DNA from: Amoebidium appalachense
Taxonomy: Eukaryota > Protista > Ichthyosporea
Direction: 5' to 3'
NCBI GenBank assembly: GCA_963693365.1
Contig: CAVNZM010000014.1
Coordinates: forward strand, 6,882,001 to 6,946,000
DNA length: 64,000 nt
This document shows, one piece after another, positions 12,664 to 62,489 of this stretch. The translations under genes and the position numbers were made by a program. Position 1 is the stretch's first letter. The number at the start of each line of letters is the position of its first letter. Below the pieces are notes generated by a model, which worked only from the letters and a program-made list of their open reading frames with translations, ran no database searches and had not been told where the DNA came from.

Positions 12664-35135
<22,472 letters not shown>

Positions 35136-44812: not shown

Positions 44813-47197
44813 ATGAGCAACTCCGAGGATGTTATACCCTGTATTTCTGCCATCACCGACCTCCAGCGCGGTGTTATGTGGGTGCGCATAACCGTGGAGC
44901 CAGTAGTCATTCTGCTTTCTTTAATAGCCCTTGGCCTATACATCCACCGCCGCCACCAGTTCCCCATATCCGAACAATGGCCCACCAACGGGATAATCAC
45001 CTGCGTGTCGGTGATATTATGGGCAATAAACGACGTTTTCTACGCGCTATACACCTACGGAAGCTTTAGTGGTGTCAATATTGTGCATTGCGTTTGGGGA
45101 AACCGGGTTTCTTCTTTGTTGGACATTAGCTGGTGTGCGTTGGTTTTAACGGCCGCAGCGTCTGAGTCATCTCGTGCACTTTGGGTGTGTGCCAATCACT
45201 ACCGTACACACTTCATGTTGGATCCTGTTAATAGTTTCGACGTGATGGCACAACTCAACAACTCTAGTGCTAGCCACGTGCACGATTGGGAGAACACCCC
45301 GCACTCGTCCACAAGCAGCAACGGGAAGAGGATGTCGAGGACGGAGAGGTATGTGTCTGTCTGTGTGCCTGTATGCCTGCACGTGCATACTCCGCGGCGC
45401 GTGTGTCTGTCTCCGTGTTTAGACCCGCTTCTATTCGCGTGTTGGACGCTTCCATTCAAGTGTTGGATTGTGTGCGCTTGTGTGCTTGTGTCTGTATATG
45501 TATGTGTGCATCTAGTCGAGAATCCTGTGTCGGATTTTCTGCCTCTGTATATCGTGTAATTGGGGGGGGGAAATGTGCTGTTTATTAACAACATTTAGGT
45601 AAGCTGTGATGAGTTGTCGGCACCAAGGCCAACCGTACTTCCACCCAACAAGATATACATGTAGTAAAATCGGTGTTGCACTTAAATCATATACATTTTA
45701 AGTGGCGATATAACGTATCAAATAAACATCATATGTGGAGATTTAATTTTTTTATTCTTTTTTTTTTTTCGTGTTCTTACGCTGAGAGATCTCTGTCTCT
45801 GCACGACGTGTGCAGTTGTGTGCACTGTGAGCTCTTTACCGTATGCACACAGTACCAACATTTTCCCACCTTCTGCAGTGGTTTGACGTTCTGTTTCTGG
45901 ACGTGGAACTCGCACCAAACAGCCCGGTTTGTGCGCCTCGTGACCACCTACGTGGTGCCCCTCTTTGCCGCACTGTTTGCACTTGCCTGTGTGGCCGTGT
46001 ACATTCCTGCGCTGCTCACACAGGACGGCAAGCGATATGACATGGCCTATGATGCAAGCACCGTGCTGATGGCAGTTGGGGTGTCAATGTGCACACCCAT
46101 AGTCCACGCCGTGTCCATTCTGCTGATCATGAGGGTGTCGACATTTGCCGACACAACAAACATTACAACACAGCTCAAGGTGGGTACTGGGTGGACGGCT
46201 CCACGTGTGAAAAACTTGGGGCACGTTTAAACCCGTTCCGAACACCCACTCATGCAGGAAATGCCCACTCGGTACGCTGATGGCACACAAAAAGCGCACA
46301 ATAGGTCAATATTGACTTTTGCACACAAGAACGATTTCAGCGGATGGAGATCGAGTTGTGGCAAGTGCACTTCATGTGCAATTTTGGAACATGGTTGGTT
46401 ACATAAAGTATAGATTGATGGCAACCCACCAACCTACACAACCGTTGTGCTTACTGGATTCGCACATAAAACACAACACACACACACACACACACACACA
46501 CGTGCAGGTTCTAGCAGTCTTCTGGTGGTTTTGGCTCATCCCCTCCCTCTGCGACATGACCACCATCCGTGTTCCCAGCATCGGCCTACTGATTTCACTG
46601 CAGCCCCTGTGCACGTGTTTGGTTGTCATAACAACGCTAGCCACGTGGCCCCTGGCGCTGTCCTACCGGGCACACAAACTGACCAATCAGAGGAAAGGAA
46701 GCGTCACAACCACCTGCCGAGAGCTGATTGGCACCTTGGAAGACAGGGAGAAGAGGAATGCGCTGAGGGTGTTTATGGCCTGCGAATTTGCCGTGGAAAA
46801 CGTATGTTTTACACACATCCCCGTATTAGTGTGCATGCAAGGGTTTGGGTGTGTGTGTGTTCGTACAAAGTGGCATACAAAAACAAACACGTGCGCGCAC
46901 ACACACACAGCACAAACATCGACAAGCACAAGCTTAGTAAAAACGCACGCACGCACAAGCATGCACCCGAGCATGTACGCACACAGATATACAATAAACC
47001 TATAGACACATACACGTGTGTGTGCACGCGTGCACACACACACACACACACACACACATGCACAGGCACACACTAGCAAACGGTACCTATCAAAATAACA
47101 CTCCATCCCCCCCCCCCTATACACCCATTTTTGTTTGGGCGCTTTGCAGACATAATCGGTTAACCACTGCTGATCAACGAATGCACACACGCGCGGG

Positions 47198-47290
<93 letters not shown>

Positions 47291-47847
47291 GCATTTTTGG
47301 GAGGCAGTGGAGGGCTACAAGCGGCGCCTCGCGAATGCGCCAGCATTTTCGTCCCACGGGGGGGACCTACACTCCATGTGTGGCCGCATAGGGGGATTCG
47401 TTACAATTGCAGAGAGGCTGTATGACGTCTACATCGACAGCACGGCTATCTGCCAGGTGGGTAGCCTAATATGGCTAGTGGTGGAGAGATTTGATTGGGT
47501 GCACACGGGGATAGAGTTAAACATAGTGTAAGATTACCTTCACGTGTTCATGCCATTTCAGCAATGGTTTTCCAGTTCGGACGCACTTGGCATTGAAGCT
47601 TATTTGCGCTTGTTTGGGAGCTAGCGGGTTATCCAGTCTATGCACAAACATCGCCTGCTTTTTGTACAACATTCTACGCCATTGTGTACCATTTTTTGGT
47701 TTCATGTCGGTGATTCCTACTTGCACCAGATTCTGACTCTACCCTCCCCCCTCCCCCCCCCTCCCCCCCCCCCCCCCCCCCCACCACCACCACCACCACC
47801 ACCACCCCTAATTTTTCAACCCTCCCCCTTTCAGCACACACACATGT

Positions 47848-47883
<36 letters not shown>

Positions 47884-48427
47884 GTACACACACACACACA
47901 CACACACACAGGTCAATGTTCCTGGTAACGTCAGAACACACATCCACCAACAGCTGGAGTCCATCCGCGAGCACCACCTATTACTGCGTGCATATTGCCG
48001 GAAACGCCCGCAGGGGCATTTTGCCGGCGCAAGTTTTATGCGGAAAAAATTGTCTCTTAACGCAAACAACCAATTTTCACAATCCAGCCTTAGCCAGATC
48101 GAAAGAACGAAAAGTTCGTTTACGTTAAAGAGTACCCCTGTTTCCAACGTGCATGCACCCACGTTGAGTATTGAGGTGGGTTTGGATCACGTGACAGAGG
48201 TTCCAAGATGCGGCACTGACGAGATCGTGATTAACAGCCAATCGGATGCCGTGATTGGGCCGTTGGACGACACGCACTATGCGCAGTGGGCAAACGATGC
48301 ACGTGCGATTTTAACGACCATTTTTGATTCGGCGGAAACGCACGTGGTGAATATCATTGCTACGGATGTGTTTCCTCGTTACCTTGCTCATGTCAACGGT
48401 GCAACAGCACTCAGTAATGAGGTATAG
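44813..48427 (+). CDS. 7TM-RGS fusion protein (seven TM helices + C-terminal regulator of G-protein signalling domain)
   Basis: Phase-consistent exons 44813-45348, 45879-46179, 46508-46801, 47289-47456, 47912-48427. About 7 hydrophobic helices, then RGS motifs RNALRVFMACEFAVEN|LHFWEAVEGYK, AERLYDVYIDSTAICQ|VNVP and IFDSAETHVVNIIATDVFPRYL. Confidence 0.9.
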
Positions 48428-49390: not shown

Positions 49391-52300
49391 ATTTTTTTTA
49401 AATTTTTTTTTTAATCACGTTTTGTTCCCGGAGGGCCTTATCAGGCCCTCTAGGGAAACTACCGTCTACCACACAGCACCGACAGTACACTAGTTAAGGT
49501 GCTCTCTATGAGTTCAGCTAAGCTAAAACCATCCTTCACAACCTAACTATAAGTACACACTTTGCCCAGGGCTACTACCCCAGCCACGCCGGCAGGAGGC
49601 TCCAGTCCTCCCCTCCGATTCAAAACCTATCAATAAACGTTAACCGAGGGTTCTCATAGGTCGATCGACAGTATTGGGAAGTCCTAAGTGTTGTGTATGG
49701 TATTTACGGTGGGTATGGGTGGATGATGGGGTGTGGTGGTGGTGGTGGGGGGGGGTTGGTGCCTAACATTATGTGTTGTTGTACGTATGTTGTGGCGATG
49801 TTTTTGTGGACTAAAAGGTGGGTTTTACAGGGCACACTGGGTCTGTGTGTGTTCCGGCAGTCAGAACAGGTTGGCCGGGTGTGTGTGGGGGGTGTATTTG
49901 TTGGTGTCTTGGGTTTTTGGGGAGCCATACGTTTCTTTCTACGGGTGGTGGGTATATGGTGGTGTTTTTGCATTTTGGGGTGGGTGGGGGGGAGTGTTGT
50001 GTTCCCTGGGTGCCAATTTTTGAAAAGAAAAAGGACTGCAACTCTACTGTGATTTTTCCTAAGATGGTTCGGGTGGTGGTCTTGGTGGTGCCGGTGGCTG
50101 CAAGTAGTGGGCCCACCGATCGTGGCCAGAATCCCCGACGGCGTTCGACCCACTTGATGTCTTCGGGGTCTGGTGGGTCACCGTTGCCTCCTATCCAGTT
50201 TATCCATGCACATTGGTCTACCACCGTGGCTGCCGTATGGTGGTGCTGTGCCGTGGGGGTGTTTGGATGACGAGTGTGCAGGACGTTGTGGATGCAGGCT
50301 GTGATGGCCGTGGTCAGGGTGGTGGGTGGTGGTCTCAGGGTGCTGGCTGCACCGGGGGCATGTGGGCTGTGTAACGACGGTGGGGTGATCTTGGTGTAGC
50401 CGTGTCATGGTAGGCAGGGTGCCCATGGCCAGGGACAGGCTACGAATGTTGCCTCTGACGGCCCCGATGGTTGCCTGTGCGGGCCCCTTGTTGAGCTTGA
50501 GGGGGTTCCGTTCGGCTGGGAGCAGTCTGGGGTCGGCTAGTATGGACATAGCCTTGGTCTTGCCGGCCATGTCGGTGAGGAAGTCCTTGTTCAACCGGTT
50601 CAGTGTACCGGGAATGTTGCCGGGGATACGGTGGCCTTGTAGTCGTAGGAAGTATTTCCCCCCCCCCCCGGGCCCGAGGTAGGGGGGGGGGGCGGAGGGG
50701 GAGGGCTCTTCCTGCATTGGCTGCCTTGTCTGCCTCGTTATTCCGTTGATCGTACCGTTTGGTGTTGGATTGGTGCCCCTTCACCCACGATACCTGTACA
50801 GAGCCTGGTCGCCGTAGGGTGAGTTGGTCTCGTACGTGGGCCCATTCCACCTTCACCCACGATACCTGTACAGGACCTGGTTGCCGTAGGGAGAGTTGGT
50901 CTCGTACGTGAGCCCATTCCACTAAGTATGTGGGGGAACTTTAGCTTACGTCGAGGGGGTGTGGTGGGGTCCATGTTTGCCCCCCATCGCGATCGGTCGA
51001 CTACTCCGAGGTTATCGAGCTTGATGTGGATGGGGGTGGGGGTGGGGGTGAGCAGGAGGGCTAGTAGTACCCCTGTGAGTTCGGCTTGGGTGGATGATAG
51101 GGCCGTATGGAGCCTGGTCTTGGCCGTCACTGGTAGTGCTTTCCGGTCCGAGGTGTCCAGCACATGTAGCCCCGGCTCCGGCCTGGGCTATCCTCGTGCC
51201 CGGGTGGATGAGGCTGCCGTCCGTATAAACGGTGATCGGTTGGTCTGGGGGGATCAGGGTGATTTGCTGCTGCCACTCGTCATAGGTGGCCTGGGGCACC
51301 AAGTCGGTGTAGGTGAGCCTACGGGGAGTGGGTGGGCTCGGCAGGTCAGCCGGGTGGGCCATGCACTTGTGTCCTGGTGGTGACCCTGCCGGTGGTGGCT
51401 GCTGGGGGGGTGGTGGGCCGGGGAGGTCCCCCGGCAAGGGTGTGGCCTCCTCGTTGGCTTGCAGGTGGAGCATCTGGGGTGATGCCTGTTGGTGGGGGGG
51501 AAGATGCCGCTGAAAATGGTGTATCTTCCTCCACTGCTCGGCCGGATCGGAGCCATCCTTCAGTGCGATGACTTGGTAGATGTCGATGCTGTCGGGTGTT
51601 GATGAAGTCCTTGTGGTACTTCGGGACTACCGTGTGGGTGGTGATTCGGGTCTTGAAGGCCACGTAGGGGTCTGCCCGTATCACCTCCACAGCACGGGTC
51701 CACCCCACACACTGCTTGTTGTGGGTGTGGTTATCGGCTGGGGGCTCAGGGGGCTTGTATTTGCTGTTGGTGCTGTCGGTGCTAGAGTCCTCTGAGTCGT
51801 CGGAGTCGTCGCTGGGCCCCGTCGACTCCGATTCTGGCTCCGTGTCTGACCCTTCCCCCTCTCCGTCTGCGTACCCGGGGCTGGTGGAGAGGGTGGCCGG
51901 GGTGTAGGCCAGGTTCCATTGGGAGTGGCCGTATTTGCAGTCACCGGGGCAAAAGCGGAAATGGGCTGTTCCATGTGGGTCGTTCCACGTGGGTCGATGC
52001 CATCTCAGCCCCTCCTCCTCTGTGTTGTCCCGTAGATGGGCTATTTTGACCCAAGCCTCCCCGTTGTGGGTGGTGTGGGCCACCACCTGGCTGAGTTCGT
52101 ATTGCCCGTTCTTGACTATTTCCACCACGAATGCACCGACGCGGTGGTTTGCCACGAGGTCAATGGTGTGGTGGGTGTGTGGTCTGGGTGCTGGCCGTAG
52201 TAGGGCTGCGATGGGGGTGGCCCCCTTGATGATGGACCTGTACCACTGTGTAGCTTCCGGGCGTAGTAGGTCTGGGGTGTGGGGCCCCACCAATCGATCA

Positions 52301-52620
52301 TGTGCCTCTCTCAGCCCTCCCTCCTTCTGCCCCCTCCTTCTAAGCCCAGGCCACAGCATAACAGTATGGCTATGAAGTAAACCTTACTCCTTCCACTTCG
52401 AGTGGCACCGACTGTACGCTAACATGTAACCATAAGTCAACGGGGTGCTATATATTGTCGCAGCCAATCGCCCGGATTAAACGGGTCGTGGTATTTATGA
52501 ATCCCCCAGGGCTTGGGAATGCAACACGGCCTGCTAAATGGTGGCGTTGCTGCTGGGAGATGCCATTGGGCAGGGAAGGTGCAGTTAACACCGCTCGAGG
52601 GCAATGGTTATGGTCCCGTG
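49391..52620 (-). mobile_element. 5'-truncated, frameshifted non-LTR retrotransposon 3' portion with RNase H and a C-terminal Zn-knuckle
   Basis: Minus-strand fragments in shifting frames: ITVYTDGS..AGAG, SSTQAELTGVLLAL, IKLDNLGVV, VSWVKGH..RNNEADKAA (all RNase HI motifs), then CPRCSQHPETTTHH. T-runs at 49392-49412 would be a poly-A tail on the element strand. No introns. Boundaries approximate. Confidence 0.8.
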
Positions 52621-53818: not shown

Positions 53819-54298
53819 TGTAAACAACTGTACACATGAACTGTACATGTTTACTAAAGAATGTGATCTACTAGCACACAATTCGTTCTTTGTCATGAAT
53901 ATCACATAAATATTATGTCCACACCAATAGGAATCAATCTTACCTAAGAAATGAACCATGTATGATTCTACCGCTGCATACCACATAAACGAAGTGAACC
54001 AATAAGATGTTTGCATAAATAGGACGAAGGTCTGACTGGCTTGGACCGCACCAGAATCACGAATGGCATGTTGCCACCCGCGCTGGCCGCGGATGAAGCA
54101 ATCCTGGGCCTTGATCCGAAACCTGGGGGCTATATAACAAAGCCGTCCCAGTACGGGGATCACATCAGTGAAGTCTGAGACAGACTGAGTCGGCCCATAG
54201 TAAAAGCAACTTGGCCGCGTGTGCCTTTCTACCCGTTCTCTGTCTTTATTCTGATTCAGTTGTTCTCTGCCTTATCCCAACTAGTCCAACTGTTTACA
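53819..54298 (+). repeat. 5' LTR
   Basis: 480 bp, TG...CA ends with an 8-bp terminal inverted repeat, followed by the PBS. Confidence 0.93.
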
Positions 54299-56877
54299 TT
54301 GGCGACCGCGCAGTTCAAGAATCTCGCATCCTTCGAATCTCACATCTTTCAATCAGTTCAAGAATCTCACATCTTTCAATCAGCTCAAGAATCTCCCATG
54401 GCCGATCACAATCCTTATTACCCCGATGATAGGCACATCTTTCCTTGTCCGGCTTAGAATATATACACCGACAAGTTTGAAGTGGCCAGCCCACCTACAC
54501 GGAAAGAATTGAAAGCATGTAAAACTTCTTTTGCTACGACACATCAAAAATGTGAAGAAAAACGAATACACAACGAAACAACGAATACACGAACAAACGA
54601 ATAAAGAATTGCTAACGAAGCAATGAACCAACGAAAAACGAACCATCACGAATACGCAATGAAATAAAGAATTAACGACAAGCGAATGCATAGAGGAAAT
54701 ACGAATGAATGCAACACAAAACAAAACAAAGTAACGAAGTTATCAAACGACAAAAAACGAAAAACGAAAGCAAAATGAAATGGAAATACGAAAATGAAAG
54801 AACGAATGCACAACACTGCTTGGGTTGCAATGCACACAGCCCCCTCTATGTTACGAAGAAAAGAAAACCGTTGCCCTTGCGTGCATTGCGCTATTGCACA
54901 CTGTCATCGTGTCCATGCCACCGCATGCACCTCCACACTCGCAAGCCAGATGCACGGCCACTTTCAGCACGAATGCATTTAAAGAAGAAGATAGTCGCTG
55001 TTCCTATAGCATTGAGGACATAAGGTGCTGTGAAAGTAGTTTTGCATGCATGCTTCGAATTTCTTGCTGTTTTCGAATACAGCATGCCCCATAGTTTAGC
55101 GCACAGGATGCACAACATGCGCATGAATGTATGCTGGCATGCCTAAACACATTACGAACATATGCCTCATGTATGGCGGCCCTTCCTGGTGCCACGCCCT
55201 AACGAATTTGCACTCTTGGTGCACAAAAGGCATGTAATAAAGTCGATGCAGAACTTTTGTTCATGCATGTGAAAAACAAAGAAGGTGTTGGGTACGAATT
55301 TTAAGGTGAATGCCCGTCTGTGGCAATACTGTGTAACATACCAATTACACTGTCAAGCCTTGCACTAGCTGCCGGCACACCCCCACCAGAACAAAAGAAT
55401 GTGGTATGGGCACCGTTCCCTCACAACCCCAGCATACAGTGTCAGTATTTTGGCTGGAAGCCTTTCAGTTTCGAATTACGAATACCCTCCTTCACTACTG
55501 AAGAAAGTGACGTGGAAGACGAATACGAATACGAATGCAAGGTGTTGTTGACTAACACATCGGACCATCATGTGTACCTAGGCCCTGGTACGGAGGTGAC
55601 CATGTTATTCCCTTGCAATATGATGACACTGTAACAATTTAGCACGTGCATACCCCACCAATGGGCACATGCGGGAGACAACCCCACAAGCTGCCTTATT
55701 GGGCACCTCTGCTAAAACGAATATTCTTCTCACGAAGGAACAGAAGAATGCCACGAACACGAACCACACACCCCCCAGGCAGCTACTTACGTCTGATGTA
55801 TGAAAGTAGTAGGTGTGTGAATGGGGTAACTACATGAACACCAACACGAAAGAAAGCACAGCACAAAGCAGTTCCACGAATACGAATGGTTTTGGTATTC
55901 CACATAACGAACAGAACCTACAGTAGGGCCACCTACAAATGAAGCAGAGGATGGGGCACCATCCAGACCTGCACTGGAGGATATGAAGATACGAAGCGCG
56001 CTCACGAAGTTGCTTACAAAAGAAAGGGCGACTGTGACGACTTTTCTTTTTAGGCCAAGCCTCCAGAAGAATGTATTATGCCTGGAATCCCCCTGCTCAA
56101 CGAAAATGGCTGGCAAATGGGATACGAAAACTGCTCACGAATGGAAGCATGTGTTTTCTGAAGAAGACTTGCTCTGCCTACCCTCTTCTTATGAATTATG
56201 AACCGGGTTTTTACTGGTTCTGACGGGCTGATATATTTCTTTATGTCGCCCAACGAAGAACACTTAGGGCATTTTTATTCATGTTTTTCCCAGCTCCGAT
56301 GATGCAGGGTTAAAGCTGAAAGGAAAGAAGTGCTATTTGTTCATGAAAGAAGTGGCTTTTCTGGCCATGGCGACTCGCCTTACAGTCTTAAGGTAGAACC
56401 GGGATAAGGAGCAGTGGCTAAGCCTTGAAGCTATCCACCACTACCTGAGCTACGAAGTGACCTAAGGCTTGAGTTATATTCATTATCGAATGCTTGGTAT
56501 GATCATTCATCCACACAACCAAATTACTCGCAATTGAAAACGAATCTGCGGGAGTATCCTAAAAAGGAAAAATTCCCAAAAAGGAAAATATTACTTCTAC
56601 AGAAAAAGCCAAGCACAGAGACGAAGCGAACAATTCGCACGAACACTCTGCAACAATCTTCGCCACGAAAATGAACGCACAGAAGAATGCTGCATGAATT
56701 TACGTTTTGGCAAACGAAGAAGTGCTCATAGACGTGCACAACTCTATTCAACCATCCTTGCTCTGTTCTGCCCAGCAGCTCGGCGCACAAGAATTTTCGC
56801 TGAAGGTTGTTTATCGCCTCTCAGCCTGGTGGTTTGCTTGTCTAACGACACCACCAGGCTCCCGACAAGGGGGGGAG

Positions 56878-57357
56878 TGTAAACAACTGTACACATGAAC
56901 TGTACATGTTTACTAAAGAATGTGATCTACTAGCACACGATTCGTGCTTTGTCATGAATATCACATAAATATTATGTCCGCACCAATAGGACTCACTCTG
57001 ACCTAAGAATTGAACCATATATGGTTCTTCCGCTGCATACCACATAAACGAAGTGAACCAATAAGAGGTTTGCATAAATAGGACAAAGGTCTGACTGGCT
57101 CGGACCGCACCAGAATCACGAATGGCATGTTGCCACCCGCGCTGGCCGCGGATGAAGCAATCCTGGGCCTTGATCCGAAACCTGGGGGCTATATAACAAA
57201 GCCGTCCCAGTACGGGGATCACATCAGTGAAGTCTGAGACAGACTGAGTCGGCCCATAGTAAAAGCAACCTGGCCGCGTGTGCCTTTCTACCCGTTCTCT
57301 GTCTTTATTTTGATTCAGTTGTACTCTGCCTTATCCTAACTAGTCCAACTGTTTACA
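56878..57357 (+). repeat. 3' LTR
   Basis: 480 bp, preceded by the polypurine tract; about 17 substitutions versus the 5' LTR by eye. Confidence 0.93.
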
Positions 57358-57631: not shown

Positions 57632-57949
57632 TCGGGGGGGGGGGGGGGGGGGGGGGGGGGAAGAGTAGGAGGCGGGCGACGAAAAGGGCATGCCCGTGTT
57701 GCAAGCGGTGTGAAAAGCCGTGTCATATTAAGGGATACGGGATCGCGCGGCTCGAATACTTTCTGGCGCCGCTCAGATCGATATCTATCTGGATTGAGTG
57801 GGCTTGATCTGCCTATTGGGCACCTAAGATCGTGTGGCCGAGCTATACCATGTACACACGGCATGCCACACACGTGTCCGGACAAAACTGCGCTGCACAT
57901 TTTTCATGAAGGCGGGTTGTTTTCTAAATATATATGATAGGCACTCACA

Positions 57950-58270
57950 ATGCCAACTTGCGCGGCTAACTACTGCAAAAATGACGAAGAAACAGTCTCT
58001 CCCAAAGATCCTACCAGGAAGATAAAGCTTTTTACTGTTCCATATGGATGCAAACCAAATGTATTGGCTAGGAGGCATGCTTGGTTAAATGCTATAGGCA
58101 GGCAGGAGCAAACAAAGTATGAGCGGAAACAGCTGTTTAGCAATCAGGTGCAGATGTCGATGGTAGGCACCCATTGGATGGTAGCTAAGGCTGTGGCTTT
58201 CTTGTGTAACATGCAAGAGCCACTATATAAGGATATGGTGGGGCCCAGGCACACCAAAAGCATGGTGTAG
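57950..58270 (+). pseudogene. Internally deleted THAP-domain transposase (THAP N-terminus joined to a Harbinger/ISL2EU-like C-terminus)
   Basis: MPTCAANYCKN..LFTVP..RRHAWLNAIGR matches the first part of a THAP finger, but the closing C..HF is missing. The end, VAKAVAFLCNMQEPL, resembles the LcN...PL terminus of DDE_Tnp_4 transposases. No DDE core. Confidence 0.7.
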
Positions 58271-58313
58271 AATTTTCGTTTTCGATTGCCTCTCCCTAAA
58301 GCCCCCTTCTCTG

Positions 58314-58390
<77 letters not shown>

Positions 58391-58596
58391 GGGGGCAAAA
58401 ATATGAATGAATGCTTGCATGTATGTATTCGGCCAGTAGGGCTCCACTTTTCCTGTATAGGAAAATAATAATAATAATTGAAATTATTATGTATTTGTGT
58501 GCCAAGTACAACCTTGAGTCGTTCTCCCCCCCCCCCCCCCTCCCCCCCCCCCCTCCCCCCCCCTTCACACACACACACAACCACGCACACACGGAA

Positions 58597-58695
<99 letters not shown>

Positions 58696-58949
58696 CGGAT
58701 TTGCACACACGCACGCATGCACGCCCCCCCCCCCCCCCACACACACGGGGGGGGGGGGGGGGGGGGGGGGGGGGCGAGGTAGGCACGTATGCAAACACCA
58801 AGGGGGGAGGAGGGACCGGGGGGAGGGGGGGGGGGGGGGGGGGTAGGAAACATATGCAGGCACCAGGGTCTGGTACATTGCTCTCAGATTTGACACACGG
58901 TCTTCATTCATTCATTATAGGTTCACTAGATCGGTCAGAAGATTACTAA

Positions 58950-58980
<31 letters not shown>

Positions 58981-59049
58981 ACACATTATGAAAGATAACG
59001 TAAACAAAAAAAAAAAAAAAAAAAAAAAAAGGAAGGAAGGAAAACAGAA

Positions 59050-61424
59050 TCATTCAGTTGCATTTTCAGTGTTCGTGTTCTTCTTCTTCTTCTTCCTGTT
59101 TTTGTGGTTTTCTGCCCTGTATGATGGATACATTTGCATCATAAACTTTTCATTCCAGGTAAAACTATACTTGTGTCCAGTAGGGTCTATTTGCTGTACA
59201 AATGCACGGAGCCCTACAAGGTCAGGCTTGTATGATTGGGCCAATTCTTCTACACTTGGTCCTACTATCCGCCTCTTTTTCGTACCATCTACATATTGCA
59301 TCTCTATAACCTCTTCACCCTCATCATTACGTGCCCTTTTAGTTTTCACCACGTCTGCAGTTCTGTACTCTTGCACCAACACACGTGCAGGTTTCATTAA
59401 GAGCTCAGGTTTTGCTTCTCCCTTTGGTACTTTCCATTCACATTTTTTGGCCGTACATATGCCCTCAGTAAACTGCCATATCTCTTTCATGGCAATTAGT
59501 GACCAAACCAGACAACTACCATGCGAGCAACCAGCACTGGGACCAATAGTACACACACATTTTACCTCCACTATCTCTTTCACTTTGTTATCTTTCCCCA
59601 CAATGAATTTAACAACACAGAAAAAGAACCCCTTCCGAAACGAGCGTTGCACCATACCCCGCCACCAGAAATGGCAGTCACCCTCCTCACAGCCCTCCGG
59701 AAGATCATGTTTTGGATAGCAAAAGCCAAGTGTGGTTGCATCGTGTATGTATGCGCGGGCGTGTCCCCGCTTTATCGCTTGTGGGTTGTTCCGAGCCACA
59801 AGGACCGTCCCCCCTCCCACCTTCATCGTAACCTTTTTGTGCACGAAATAGTCTTCCAAAACCTGCCGGTCACAAACGGGTATTTCCTTCTGCTGATCAG
59901 CAGGATTGTAATCCCAAATTTCCCCCCCTGCCATATTGTTAATTTCCTGCATCAAAGATTTGTTTTTTGCTTTCAGTTCTTCCGCCCGCAAGCCATCTTC
60001 ATCGAGAATTTTCTCACCTGTGTGTCTATCAACCCGTCCGGTGACGTGTTTGTGCACCCCACCTTGACCATGTTGATCCAAACGTAAATTTTTTTCAAGG
60101 GCCCCTTCGATAAATCTGTAAGCACGCAAACGCCGTGGCGATACCGACTGGGAGCCGCGGGGAATGGGCGTCAAATAGTCCACCACCCAAGCTCGTGTAT
60201 TTGGGTGCCTGTACGTGATTGGCTGGTGCAAAAAAATAATGTTTGCCTTCACGCATGCCCCAACATAATCATCTGGTACTTCCCCCTGCACCCCTTCCTC
60301 CTCCACGTCCATCTCTCCATTCTCCTCCTCTTCCTCCCCCTCCTCCTCTACAGCCCCGTTTTCATACGTTCCATGTTCGTATTCAAGATCCCACCACTCA
60401 ACCTCTTCCTCCACTGCTTCACCTCCTTTCCGTCCGATTTCGACTCTTCCTGCCCGTTCGTCCCCACCCTGCTTGTTTTCTGTGCTTTTAACGGGCTTTT
60501 CCTTCCCTCTTTTCCCCTTTCTGACCCGTTGTATATGCTGGAGCAGATCTGTGAACACAACCCCCGCAGCTACCGGCCTTCCCTCGCGTCCCCAGGCCCG
60601 GCACGCCTCACTTACAGCTGCGTGCAAAGTGCCCATGTCGATTCCCCTGAGCTTTTTCACATAATCACAGCCATTCACAATAGCAAAATAACGCAGTATT
60701 TCTATATCCCATCCGTCGAAGTTGTACTTCGTGCTTCTGGTAAAAACATCGGCGGGGGTTACAATCACTCCGTACAGTTTGGGAATGCGCACCGCATTAG
60801 CGGTCCCAGGGATGACCGCCGCATCCGCAATGCGCAGTTTGTATACAACCCGCGGGATGTTATACAGAAGAAGGTCGGCATCCTCAGTGACAACAGTGTG
60901 TGCCAAACCGGTACGTGCCATATAGGCAAGCTGGGGGTCTGCTTCGTATGGAGCTACTGTGTAATCGACATTCTCATCTTTCAGTCTAGGTGGATGATTG
61001 CATGTAAAACTCTGTTATCTAACTCTGCAGCGCTTCTCCATTTGTTTTTAGTTACCTCCTCCTGTTTCTCTCTTTTTGTGGCTATTTCTTGGCGGGCTTT
61101 GACCACCTTTTCTGCACGGTCGTTATCAACTAGTTTTCCCTCTTTCAATCTGCGCCCATCAAACACATAGTGTGGCTGGACCCCTGCTAGCCTATACGTA
61201 TTAACTTTGGACATAAAGTGATTTGCAATAGCTGCATATGTGTCGTCTGTGACTTTTTTGTCATCTATTTGCTGTTTGGCTACTGTGTCAGCGAAAACTG
61301 AAAAGGACTTGTGGACCTGCACCATCCCGTCAAAAGCAACTACCCCACGTTGCAACTCTGCAGTAACATCTGTGGCTTTTTCGGCACTAATGCCGAGTGC
61401 TGGGAGCAAGCCCTGCACACCCAT
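59050..61424 (-). CDS. Exo1/XPG/FEN1-family 5' nuclease fused to a C-terminal SWIM zinc finger; one frameshift near 60990
   Basis: XPG-N: MGVQGLL (ATG 61424), VAFDG, YVFDG. After the frame change: RLKDENVDYTVAPYEADPQLAYM, VTEDADLL, H3TH NGCDY, FLHQPI. Then CVCTIGPSAGCSHGSCL (SWIM CxC..CxH) and ICTAKKCEWKVP. Intronless. Confidence 0.88.
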
Positions 61425-62489
61425 GGTAAAAGTGCATGTATTCAAAGTAGTTTCTTTTCATGAAAAAAATTCTTTCGGGTTGTGCGCCCTCTGCGTTAAC
61501 GTGCGAACACAAAACTCGTTGTACGGTGTGGGTGCGTAGCAACGCGTTACGTAATCAGGGGAAAAAAATGCGGCGCCAGAAAGAAATCGGGGACCACTCA
61601 AAATCGCCGATCCCGTATCCCTCCATCACTACCAACTTGGTTCCTGGTTCCAACTTGGTTTTAGATTCGAATTCGGCCGCGCATTCTTATCCCACTGATT
61701 GGCTGAATGCGCACCAGTTTTAAAAGGTGATTGGATGACTTGCTCAAACCTCTCTGCCTATCAGAACGCAGATCTGAATTCTCATTCTTCTGATTCGACA
61801 CAAAGGTATCGGTCGGTGTGAGGAGTGTAGAGAATTGAAAATGTCAACACGAAGGTTCCCATGACGCTGACAAGACACCGATAACTAAGATTTACATTTT
61901 ACCTGAATATGAATACCCTGTATATAACACGATTACCTATTCAAAAGTTCAAATATATCTGTATAAATTGTACAATTTTTTTTTAAATATATCTGTATAA
62001 ATTGTACAAAAATTGGAGGGCAAAATCATCTCTGCCTGTACAAACCGCACAGCAATTGGCATACTACACCAAATTCTATTTACATACCGTTGCGTTGGCA
62101 TGGGATTTTTTGCTTTGCTCTCGTTCGCCCACAAACGCCATCGAAACGCCAGACCCTCACGGCCCACCCCGGCTTCATAATCCCAGTTGTGTCTGTCTGT
62201 TATTCGACGTTTACTTGTGCTGTGTGTACCCTCATGTTTTATCTTTGTGCAAGGGCACCAAAATATAAATAGAGTTTAGTGGTATGTGAGAAGAAACGAA
62301 GGAGAAATTTGAGATAGTACTCTAGGTGCACTGCAGGAAAGTACACATGTACAGACAGCTTGGCCCAGCAAAATCCTCCCAAGGGGGTCAAGCAGGCTGT
62401 GTGGATTTTCCACGTGAATACCTACACACTGTGCCACCAAGCGGTACGGGTGGCTGAGGGTTAGAAAGAAACACACAAACAGCTAAGTT

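Follow-up and report, generated by a model that had tools for sequence, protein, structure and literature searches.

The subject of this analysis is a transposable element of the ichthyosporean Amoebidium appalachense, which lies in a stretch of 64,000 nucleotides (contig CAVNZM010000014.1 of assembly GCA_963693365.1, positions 6,882,001 to 6,946,000 of the forward strand); the whole stretch is called the window hereafter and its own numbering is used. Between 57731 and 61622, terminal inverted repeats (TIRs) enclose the remnant of a THAP transposase and, in the opposite orientation, a gene for an EXO1-like nuclease with a C-terminal SWIM-like module. The element belongs to a mobile, TIR-bounded, multi-copy family, and the copy in the window is defective, that is, its transposase is deleted and its nuclease gene carries a 2-nt frameshift. 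A sequence-only reading of the window had described an ISL2EU/Harbinger-like transposon whose accessory gene is an Exo1/XPG nuclease fused to SWIM instead of YqaJ. The mobile TIR-bounded element, the THAP remnant of the PHIS (Harbinger/ISL2EU-like) type and the EXO1-type nuclease with its SWIM-like module were all found again, while the YqaJ exonuclease by which ISL2EU elements are recognized was not. The parts of the element are as follows.

57727-57728 (left) and 61625-61626 (right), no strand: AT dinucleotide, likely a 2-bp target duplication, from the empty site in run X9
57731-57745, plus strand: left TIR, perfect over 15 bp; 17 bp when counted from 57729, if the duplication is AT
57759-57772, plus strand: left subterminal inverted repeat, 14 bp
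57950-58270, plus strand: deleted transposase, the first 60 THAP codons joined in frame to the last 46 DDE_Tnp_4-type codons (from Pfam and comparison with protein P0001)
58271-59049, no strand: spacer between the convergent genes, with abundant mononucleotide runs and microsatellites of the type (GCAC)n / (CA)n
59050-61424, minus strand: gene for an EXO1-like nuclease that carries a SWIM-like module at its C-terminus; 790 codons when read through a 2-nt frameshift near 60989-60990
59434-59769, minus strand: conserved C-terminal module (RGHA, CxC-x7-CxH, C.W..P), common to proteins P0005 and P0006
60661-61424, minus strand: XPG_N, XPG_I and an H3TH-type motif, with the acidic motifs FDG, VFDG, EAD, EDAD and GCDY
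61570-61583, minus strand: right subterminal inverted repeat, 14 bp
61608-61622, minus strand: right TIR, perfect over 15 bp; the neighbouring 61623-61624 mismatch the left end

Element ends, target site and further copies

The TIRs and the inner repeats lie exactly where the sequence-only reading had placed them, and when the two 201-nt end regions were shuffled 1000 times as doublet tokens, no inverted match of at least 14 arose, the longest being 11. Within the window, the TIR 15-mer has no further occurrence at up to three mismatches. Among the public sequencing runs listed, 20 of 24 contain the stretch or part of it and four were aligned to 59060-62300; run X20, which covers 6 of 30 bins, was left out. 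In a contig of run X9, 57697-57726 is followed immediately by 61625; this is an empty site, the only one obtained (n = 1), and it looks clean. Its simplest reading is, likely, an AT duplication around an element of 57729-61624, and the true ends may accordingly sit 2 nt beyond 57731 and 61622. In run X11, the right end of another copy, seen as a loose end at 61622, carries two extra bases complementary to the left end. With AT as the duplication, this right end therefore agrees with the left end over 17 bp, while the right end in the window differs at the last two. A contig of run X2 spans the filled right junction (61611-62300) and equals the window letter for letter; therefore, the two-base mismatch does not stem from a wrong assembly of the window. 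If the duplication is AT, the right end begins with GG, as ISL2EU TIRs usually do, and the left end with TA, and a TIR of 15-17 bp falls within the ISL2EU range of 6-259 bp.

These ends also bear on another possible placement, with canonical Harbinger (TWA duplication) or Kolobok-like elements (TTAA duplication) instead of ISL2EU-like ones; the right copy of the duplication would then have mutated, and the site in X9 would be an excision or deletion footprint. TTA and TTAA do stand beside the repeat on the left, the right flank of the X11 copy reads TAA/TTAA, and accessory nucleases of several kinds occur among the Kolobok lineages (PMC9587614). However, the right flank in the window reads CCA where the left reads TTA, and TCCA where the left reads TTAA, and neither TTA nor TTAA is present in the empty site, so that two extra events would be required. 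Moreover, the transposase remnant has THAP, matches DDE_Tnp_4, albeit weakly, and has no Myb/SANT partner. This explanation is considered quite improbable.

Copies at other places are evident in the runs. An X11 contig passes from the right end of the element into a different flank, that is, a second insertion site, and the depth over the module-coding core exceeds that of the flank about 4.6-fold in X9 and 3.8-fold in X2; nearer the right end it does so about 12-fold and 49-fold, respectively, although depth is not equal to copy number and is taken only as "more than one". Because of the empty site, the other insertion flank and the raised depth, the element is assigned to a mobile family. 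By the same evidence, the gene is neither single-copy nor without other TIR-bounded copies, two outcomes that the sequence-only reading had named as counting against it.

The other copies also carry the coding frame. The two bases at the frameshift are absent in all three runs covering the place (X9, X2 and X11), and hence the frameshift is private to the copy in the window; an intron behind the change of frame was ruled out, as the other copies simply do not have the two bases. The 12 fixed differences in X9 create no stop codon. In a contig of a diverged sister family over 59614-59703, 10 of the 20 differences were listed and scored, and seven of these ten are synonymous changes at third positions (binomial p 0.02). 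A deletion derivative in X11 joins 59325 to 60353. The X11 copies of highest depth (59299-60722) have, in addition, small insertions at 59079, 59231 and 60921, so that a non-coding derivative dominates this run. X11 is an RNA run only by guess, and its missing cover of the right flank was not counted as evidence; among the runs listed as containing the nuclease gene there is no RNA run.

The two genes and relatives of the fusion

The nuclease gene is read from 61424 downwards. XPG_N lies at 61424-60984 on the minus strand (Pfam E 9.5e-6) and XPG_I in the adjacent frame (E 5.2e-13), both above the cut-off, and with these two domains and the conserved acidic active-site residues the protein has what defines the FEN1/EXO1/XPG nucleases. 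Taken by itself, the XPG_N piece does not decide between FEN1 (E 0.014) and EXO1 (E 0.094). The XPG_I piece has Exonuclease 1 as its best solved structure (E 4e-13), and D150-D173 and GCDY align to EXO1, with residue labels as in the human enzyme. The window protein and the fusion proteins P0005 and P0006 described below each have all five acidic motif groups, and the profile of this three-protein family is closest to EXO1 (E 4e-26), followed by RAD2 (4e-14) and FEN1 (1e-13). A host EXO1 orthologue would be a single-copy gene outside mobile DNA, and the empty site, the second flank and the raised depth describe something else. The read-through of 790 codons uses X at the frameshift, and two predicted structures were of low confidence (mean pLDDT 34.9 and 33.2).

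Downstream of the nuclease domain, CxC-x7-CxH lies at 59559-59518 and CTAKKCEW..P at 59457-59434, after which 124 residues follow to the stop. The SWIM finger and CT..C.W..P motif claimed in the sequence-only reading are present as motifs, and the CxC...CxH motif occurs in all three aligned fusion proteins, but Pfam SWIM (PF04434) matches neither the window protein nor its relatives. The label SWIM-like is based on this motif and on language-model likeness in the ESM Atlas. There, the module of P0004, another fusion protein, lies near animal clusters with SWIM (11% of members, cosine 0.95) and near animal clusters with Viral_alk_exo (13-15% of members, cosine 0.91), and we infer that these clusters represent second open reading frames (ORFs) of ISL2EU elements. 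Pfam gave no YqaJ match in the window protein, P0004, P0005 or P0006, in which 122-134 residues follow C.W..P. Of the profile matches that had been anticipated for the frame-corrected protein, XPG_N and XPG_I were thus obtained, split between frames by the frameshift, and YqaJ was absent as foreseen; SWIM alone failed to appear.

The sequence-only reading had advised looking elsewhere for proteins with XPG and SWIM, and such proteins exist in two distant clusters of metagenomic proteins. With the C-terminal 416 residues as query, the nuclease being excluded, one match was obtained among 1.84 billion representatives, P0004 (E 1.9e-4), which carries XPG_N and XPG_I at its N-terminus in the same XPG-first order; since the query did not contain the nuclease, its presence in P0004 is not a selection effect. 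A word-indexed search with the C-terminal region scored none of 2698 candidates. P0005 is a cluster mate of P0004, and a search with P0004 gave three matches among 7979 candidates, namely itself, P0006 (48% identical, with the same architecture) and P0007, a host-type EXO1. Distant as these clusters are, with only about 25% identity, they keep the motifs intact; RGHA, CxC-x7-CxH and C.W..P of the window protein align with those of P0005 and P0006, and P0007 has no counterpart. P0007 was dropped as a member of the fusion family, as it has a low-complexity tail instead of the module. Weak SAP matches lie between nuclease and module in P0005 (residues 454-469, E 0.07) and P0006 (421-437, E 0.24); SAP was not detected in the window protein.

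The other gene is represented by an ORF of 106 codons, in which THAP is matched at 57950-58267 on the plus strand (Pfam E 2.5e-4, narrowly short of the curated cut-off). Among 25 candidates, one matching protein was found, P0001 (278 amino acids), which is identical to the remnant over the first 60 residues and at 44 of 46 residues at the C-terminal end. P0001 has a complete THAP (E 1.1e-8), and its C-terminal piece corresponds to positions 102-158 of the DDE_Tnp_4 profile (E 0.012, below the cut-off). The THAP transposase remnant proposed from the sequence is thereby upheld, and so is the tail-to-tail arrangement of two genes, with no introns seen in the nuclease gene. The cluster of P0001 has three members, all named Amoebidium parasiticum (EukProt), and because their names have the form used for transcript assemblies, the transposase side is probably transcribed. 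All three relatives are themselves deletion forms that lack the helix-turn-helix (HTH) and the first two aspartates, and a complete DDE domain was not among the proteins recovered. A Pfam scan found no Myb/SANT domain in either ORF, and the spacer at 58271-59049 gave no tblastn match to P0001 or P0002.

Known transposons and the possible role of the nuclease

ISL2EU elements encode a THAP-HTH-DDE transposase and, in a second ORF, a YqaJ exonuclease, and they make AT target-site duplications at A|AT|T sites (PMC4482050); ISL2EU with YqaJ is described in PMC4122938 and PMC9179366 as well. According to PMC4482050, what the second ORF does is unknown; the 25 families treated there are all from animals, YqaJ is given in 12 of the 18 rows of Table S2 that were examined (out of 25 families) with no other domain in those 18, and XPG does not occur in the three supplements. 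The present element resembles ISL2EU in its short TIRs, its remnant of a THAP-bearing transposase that is probably of DDE_Tnp_4 type, its second ORF for a nuclease, its likely AT duplication and its length of about 4-5 kb, and its SWIM-like module resembles animal SWIM/alkaline-exonuclease proteins. Unlike in ISL2EU, however, the nuclease is of XPG/EXO1 type and N-terminal to the module, the target context is not A|AT|T, and the host is an ichthyosporean whereas the families of PMC4482050 are from animals. The placement with ISL2EU rests on THAP, the weak DDE_Tnp_4 match, the likely AT duplication and the module.

With canonical PIF/Harbinger elements, whose second ORF is obligatory, the element shares short TIRs and, to judge by the remnant, the DDE_Tnp_4 transposase, but its own second ORF encodes a nuclease and not a Myb/SANT protein, and TWA is not found on both sides. 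Kolobok belongs to another transposase superfamily with TTAA duplication, but an exchange of accessory nucleases inside a single superfamily has a precedent there, as the nucleases change between lineages D, E, H and P (PMC9587614); XPG does not occur in the main text of that paper. From host EXO1, with which it shares XPG_N, XPG_I, the H3TH-type motif and the acidic active-site motifs, the gene differs in being multi-copy, inside TIRs and without visible introns, and in having the SWIM-like module where P0007 has a low-complexity tail. A further DNA transposon with an accessory nuclease is AcademX, which differs in its duplications of 3-4 bp (PMC10045372).

No XPG/EXO1-bearing Harbinger or ISL2EU element was found described in the full-text literature searched, which comprised few subscription papers and neither Repbase (with its Reports) nor Dfam. 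The main text of the Amoebidium genome paper (PMC11244446) contains none of the words Harbinger, ISL2EU and XPG, and neither XPG nor SWIM was found in the passages of PMC12730594 that were searched. Locus scans, among them those for P0004-P0006, gave nothing confirmed (blank for viral contigs 4/4, metagenome contigs 2/2, prokaryote genomes 1/1); such scans reach close relatives only, and within that scope no viral origin of the nuclease is indicated. The nuclease of AcademX is XPG-like and forms one large protein with the Academ transposase, and we know of no THAP-DDE_Tnp_4 partner or SWIM-like module in that system.

What the nuclease may do is suggested by the chemistry of transposition. DDE transposases transfer the 3' ends, and the 5' strand is freed by some other step; enzymes of the FEN1/EXO1 group cut 5' flaps and branches and resect 5' ends, and YqaJ/lambda-type enzymes are 5'-3' nucleases too. 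Because two unrelated folds of 5' polarity sit on one module, 5' processing is the job proposed here. If both folds do occupy the same slot beside that module, the need they share is probably 5'-end processing, and transposition of this kind would then likely require a second enzyme that trims 5' DNA ends. Our preferred reading, held tentatively, is that the element is a defective copy of a multi-copy PHIS cut-and-paste transposon, whose nuclease would cut or trim the non-transferred 5' strand. In such a pathway, the DDE transposase would cut one strand at the 3' ends and link these ends to an AT target; the 5' ends would then keep donor DNA as a flap or branch, which the EXO1-like nuclease would cut or trim at the element ends during transposition. 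The SWIM-like module may dock the nuclease on the transposase or on the element ends, as a related module might dock YqaJ in the ISL2EU elements of animals, and the nuclease would have a role resembling that of TnsA in Tn7. The evidence counted for this reading comprises the intact frame in other copies, the conserved active-site motifs and the occurrence of the fusion in two distant clusters.

Several observations weigh against it. The AT lies in the context T|AT|C, where ISL2EU has A|AT|T, and the two ends disagree at their outermost two bases; the relatives found include no full-length transposase; and the scans mentioned above yielded no locus that would show the DNA around P0004-P0006. 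The module of the window protein itself ranks the same five listed Atlas clusters at only 0.76-0.83, and that likeness is used as a lead only. Furthermore, a second nuclease is no general need of the superfamily, since PIF/Harbinger transposes with a Myb-like partner and Spy with one ORF (PMC9179366, PMC4122938). Two more points, the loss of about 59330-60350, that is, of the module-coding part, from the highest-depth copies in X11, and the score of the window nuclease domain, which is 92 bits against host-type EXO1 P0007 and only 60-64 bits against P0005 and P0006, lead to a different explanation. Since the score to a host-type EXO1 exceeds those to the other fusions, the fusion nucleases may have more than one origin, and the nuclease might be captured cargo, either a host EXO1 or the product of an independent capture into a SWIM-module ORF, which serves no purpose in transposition or acts in counter-defence only, for example by degrading silencing triggers. 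Yet the fusion recurs with intact motifs in clusters only about 25% identical, the changes in the sister family are mostly synonymous, and the module is common to animal SWIM/alkaline-exonuclease proteins; higher scores to a slowly evolving host gene may also be explained by long branches. Capture without a part in transposition is considered improbable.

In another explanation, the nuclease would act after excision, resecting 5' ends at the donor break and thereby letting repair from the sister chromatid or homologue restore the element and raise its copy number. EXO1, the closest structure, is a long-range 5' resection nuclease, and internal deletion derivatives are abundant (P0001, P0002, the remnant in the window and the X11 contigs); such derivatives are, however, usual in DNA transposons without a nuclease of their own, the sole empty site is clean, and the host presumably has its own EXO1. 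Limited support is given by PMC10288884, where homology-directed replication of a Harbinger-type element is treated and deletion derivatives from interrupted repair are cited. Resection of the donor site is regarded as rather unlikely.

The preferred reading, in which 5' flaps are trimmed during transposition, may be extended to ISL2EU-like elements in general, which would be two-component machines with a conserved SWIM-like adaptor and an exchangeable 5' nuclease; the EXO1 version would span eukaryotes and may be the older one, the animal YqaJ being a later replacement. This extension is doubtful at present. If it were true, a dedicated 5'-strand nuclease would be obligatory in a eukaryotic cut-and-paste pathway, like TnsA in Tn7, and, with two unrelated 5' nucleases in one slot, the question of what the second ORF of ISL2EU does would become directly testable. 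As to the swap proposed in the sequence-only reading, YqaJ may have given way to EXO1, EXO1 to YqaJ, or each may have been captured in parallel. With a copy from a unicellular organism close to the animals, this exchange between EXO1 and YqaJ becomes easier to place.

Other features of the window

Directly upstream of the element, 53819-57357 is likely a non-autonomous long terminal repeat (LTR) element. Its direct repeats of 480 bp (53819-54298 and 56878-57357) are 96% identical over 472 bp and have TG...CA ends, a primer-site-like start, TGGCG, follows the first repeat and a purine tract precedes the second, and the 2.6-kb interior has short ORFs only, of which two were scanned and gave no Pfam match. 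On the other side, a CACTA element beginning at 61627 was thought of from the first six letters only, and the idea was left unsupported. A GC-rich region with overlapping broken ORFs at 50181-52383 (minus strand) looks by eye like retroelement RNase H, and none of four pieces matched Pfam at E 0.01. Because two exon-sized pieces at 25508-26799 (plus strand) match Pfam RdRP (E 1.5e-15 and 4.7e-19), an intron-rich gene for an RNA-dependent RNA polymerase is placed there, and a degenerate 9-bp tandem array follows at 26790-27330. In addition, two genes on the plus strand (154-1668 and 45613-48424) have several hydrophobic, membrane-like segments, and the piece at 47714-48424 of the latter gives a weak RGS match (E 0.008), so that it may encode a membrane receptor-RGS protein.

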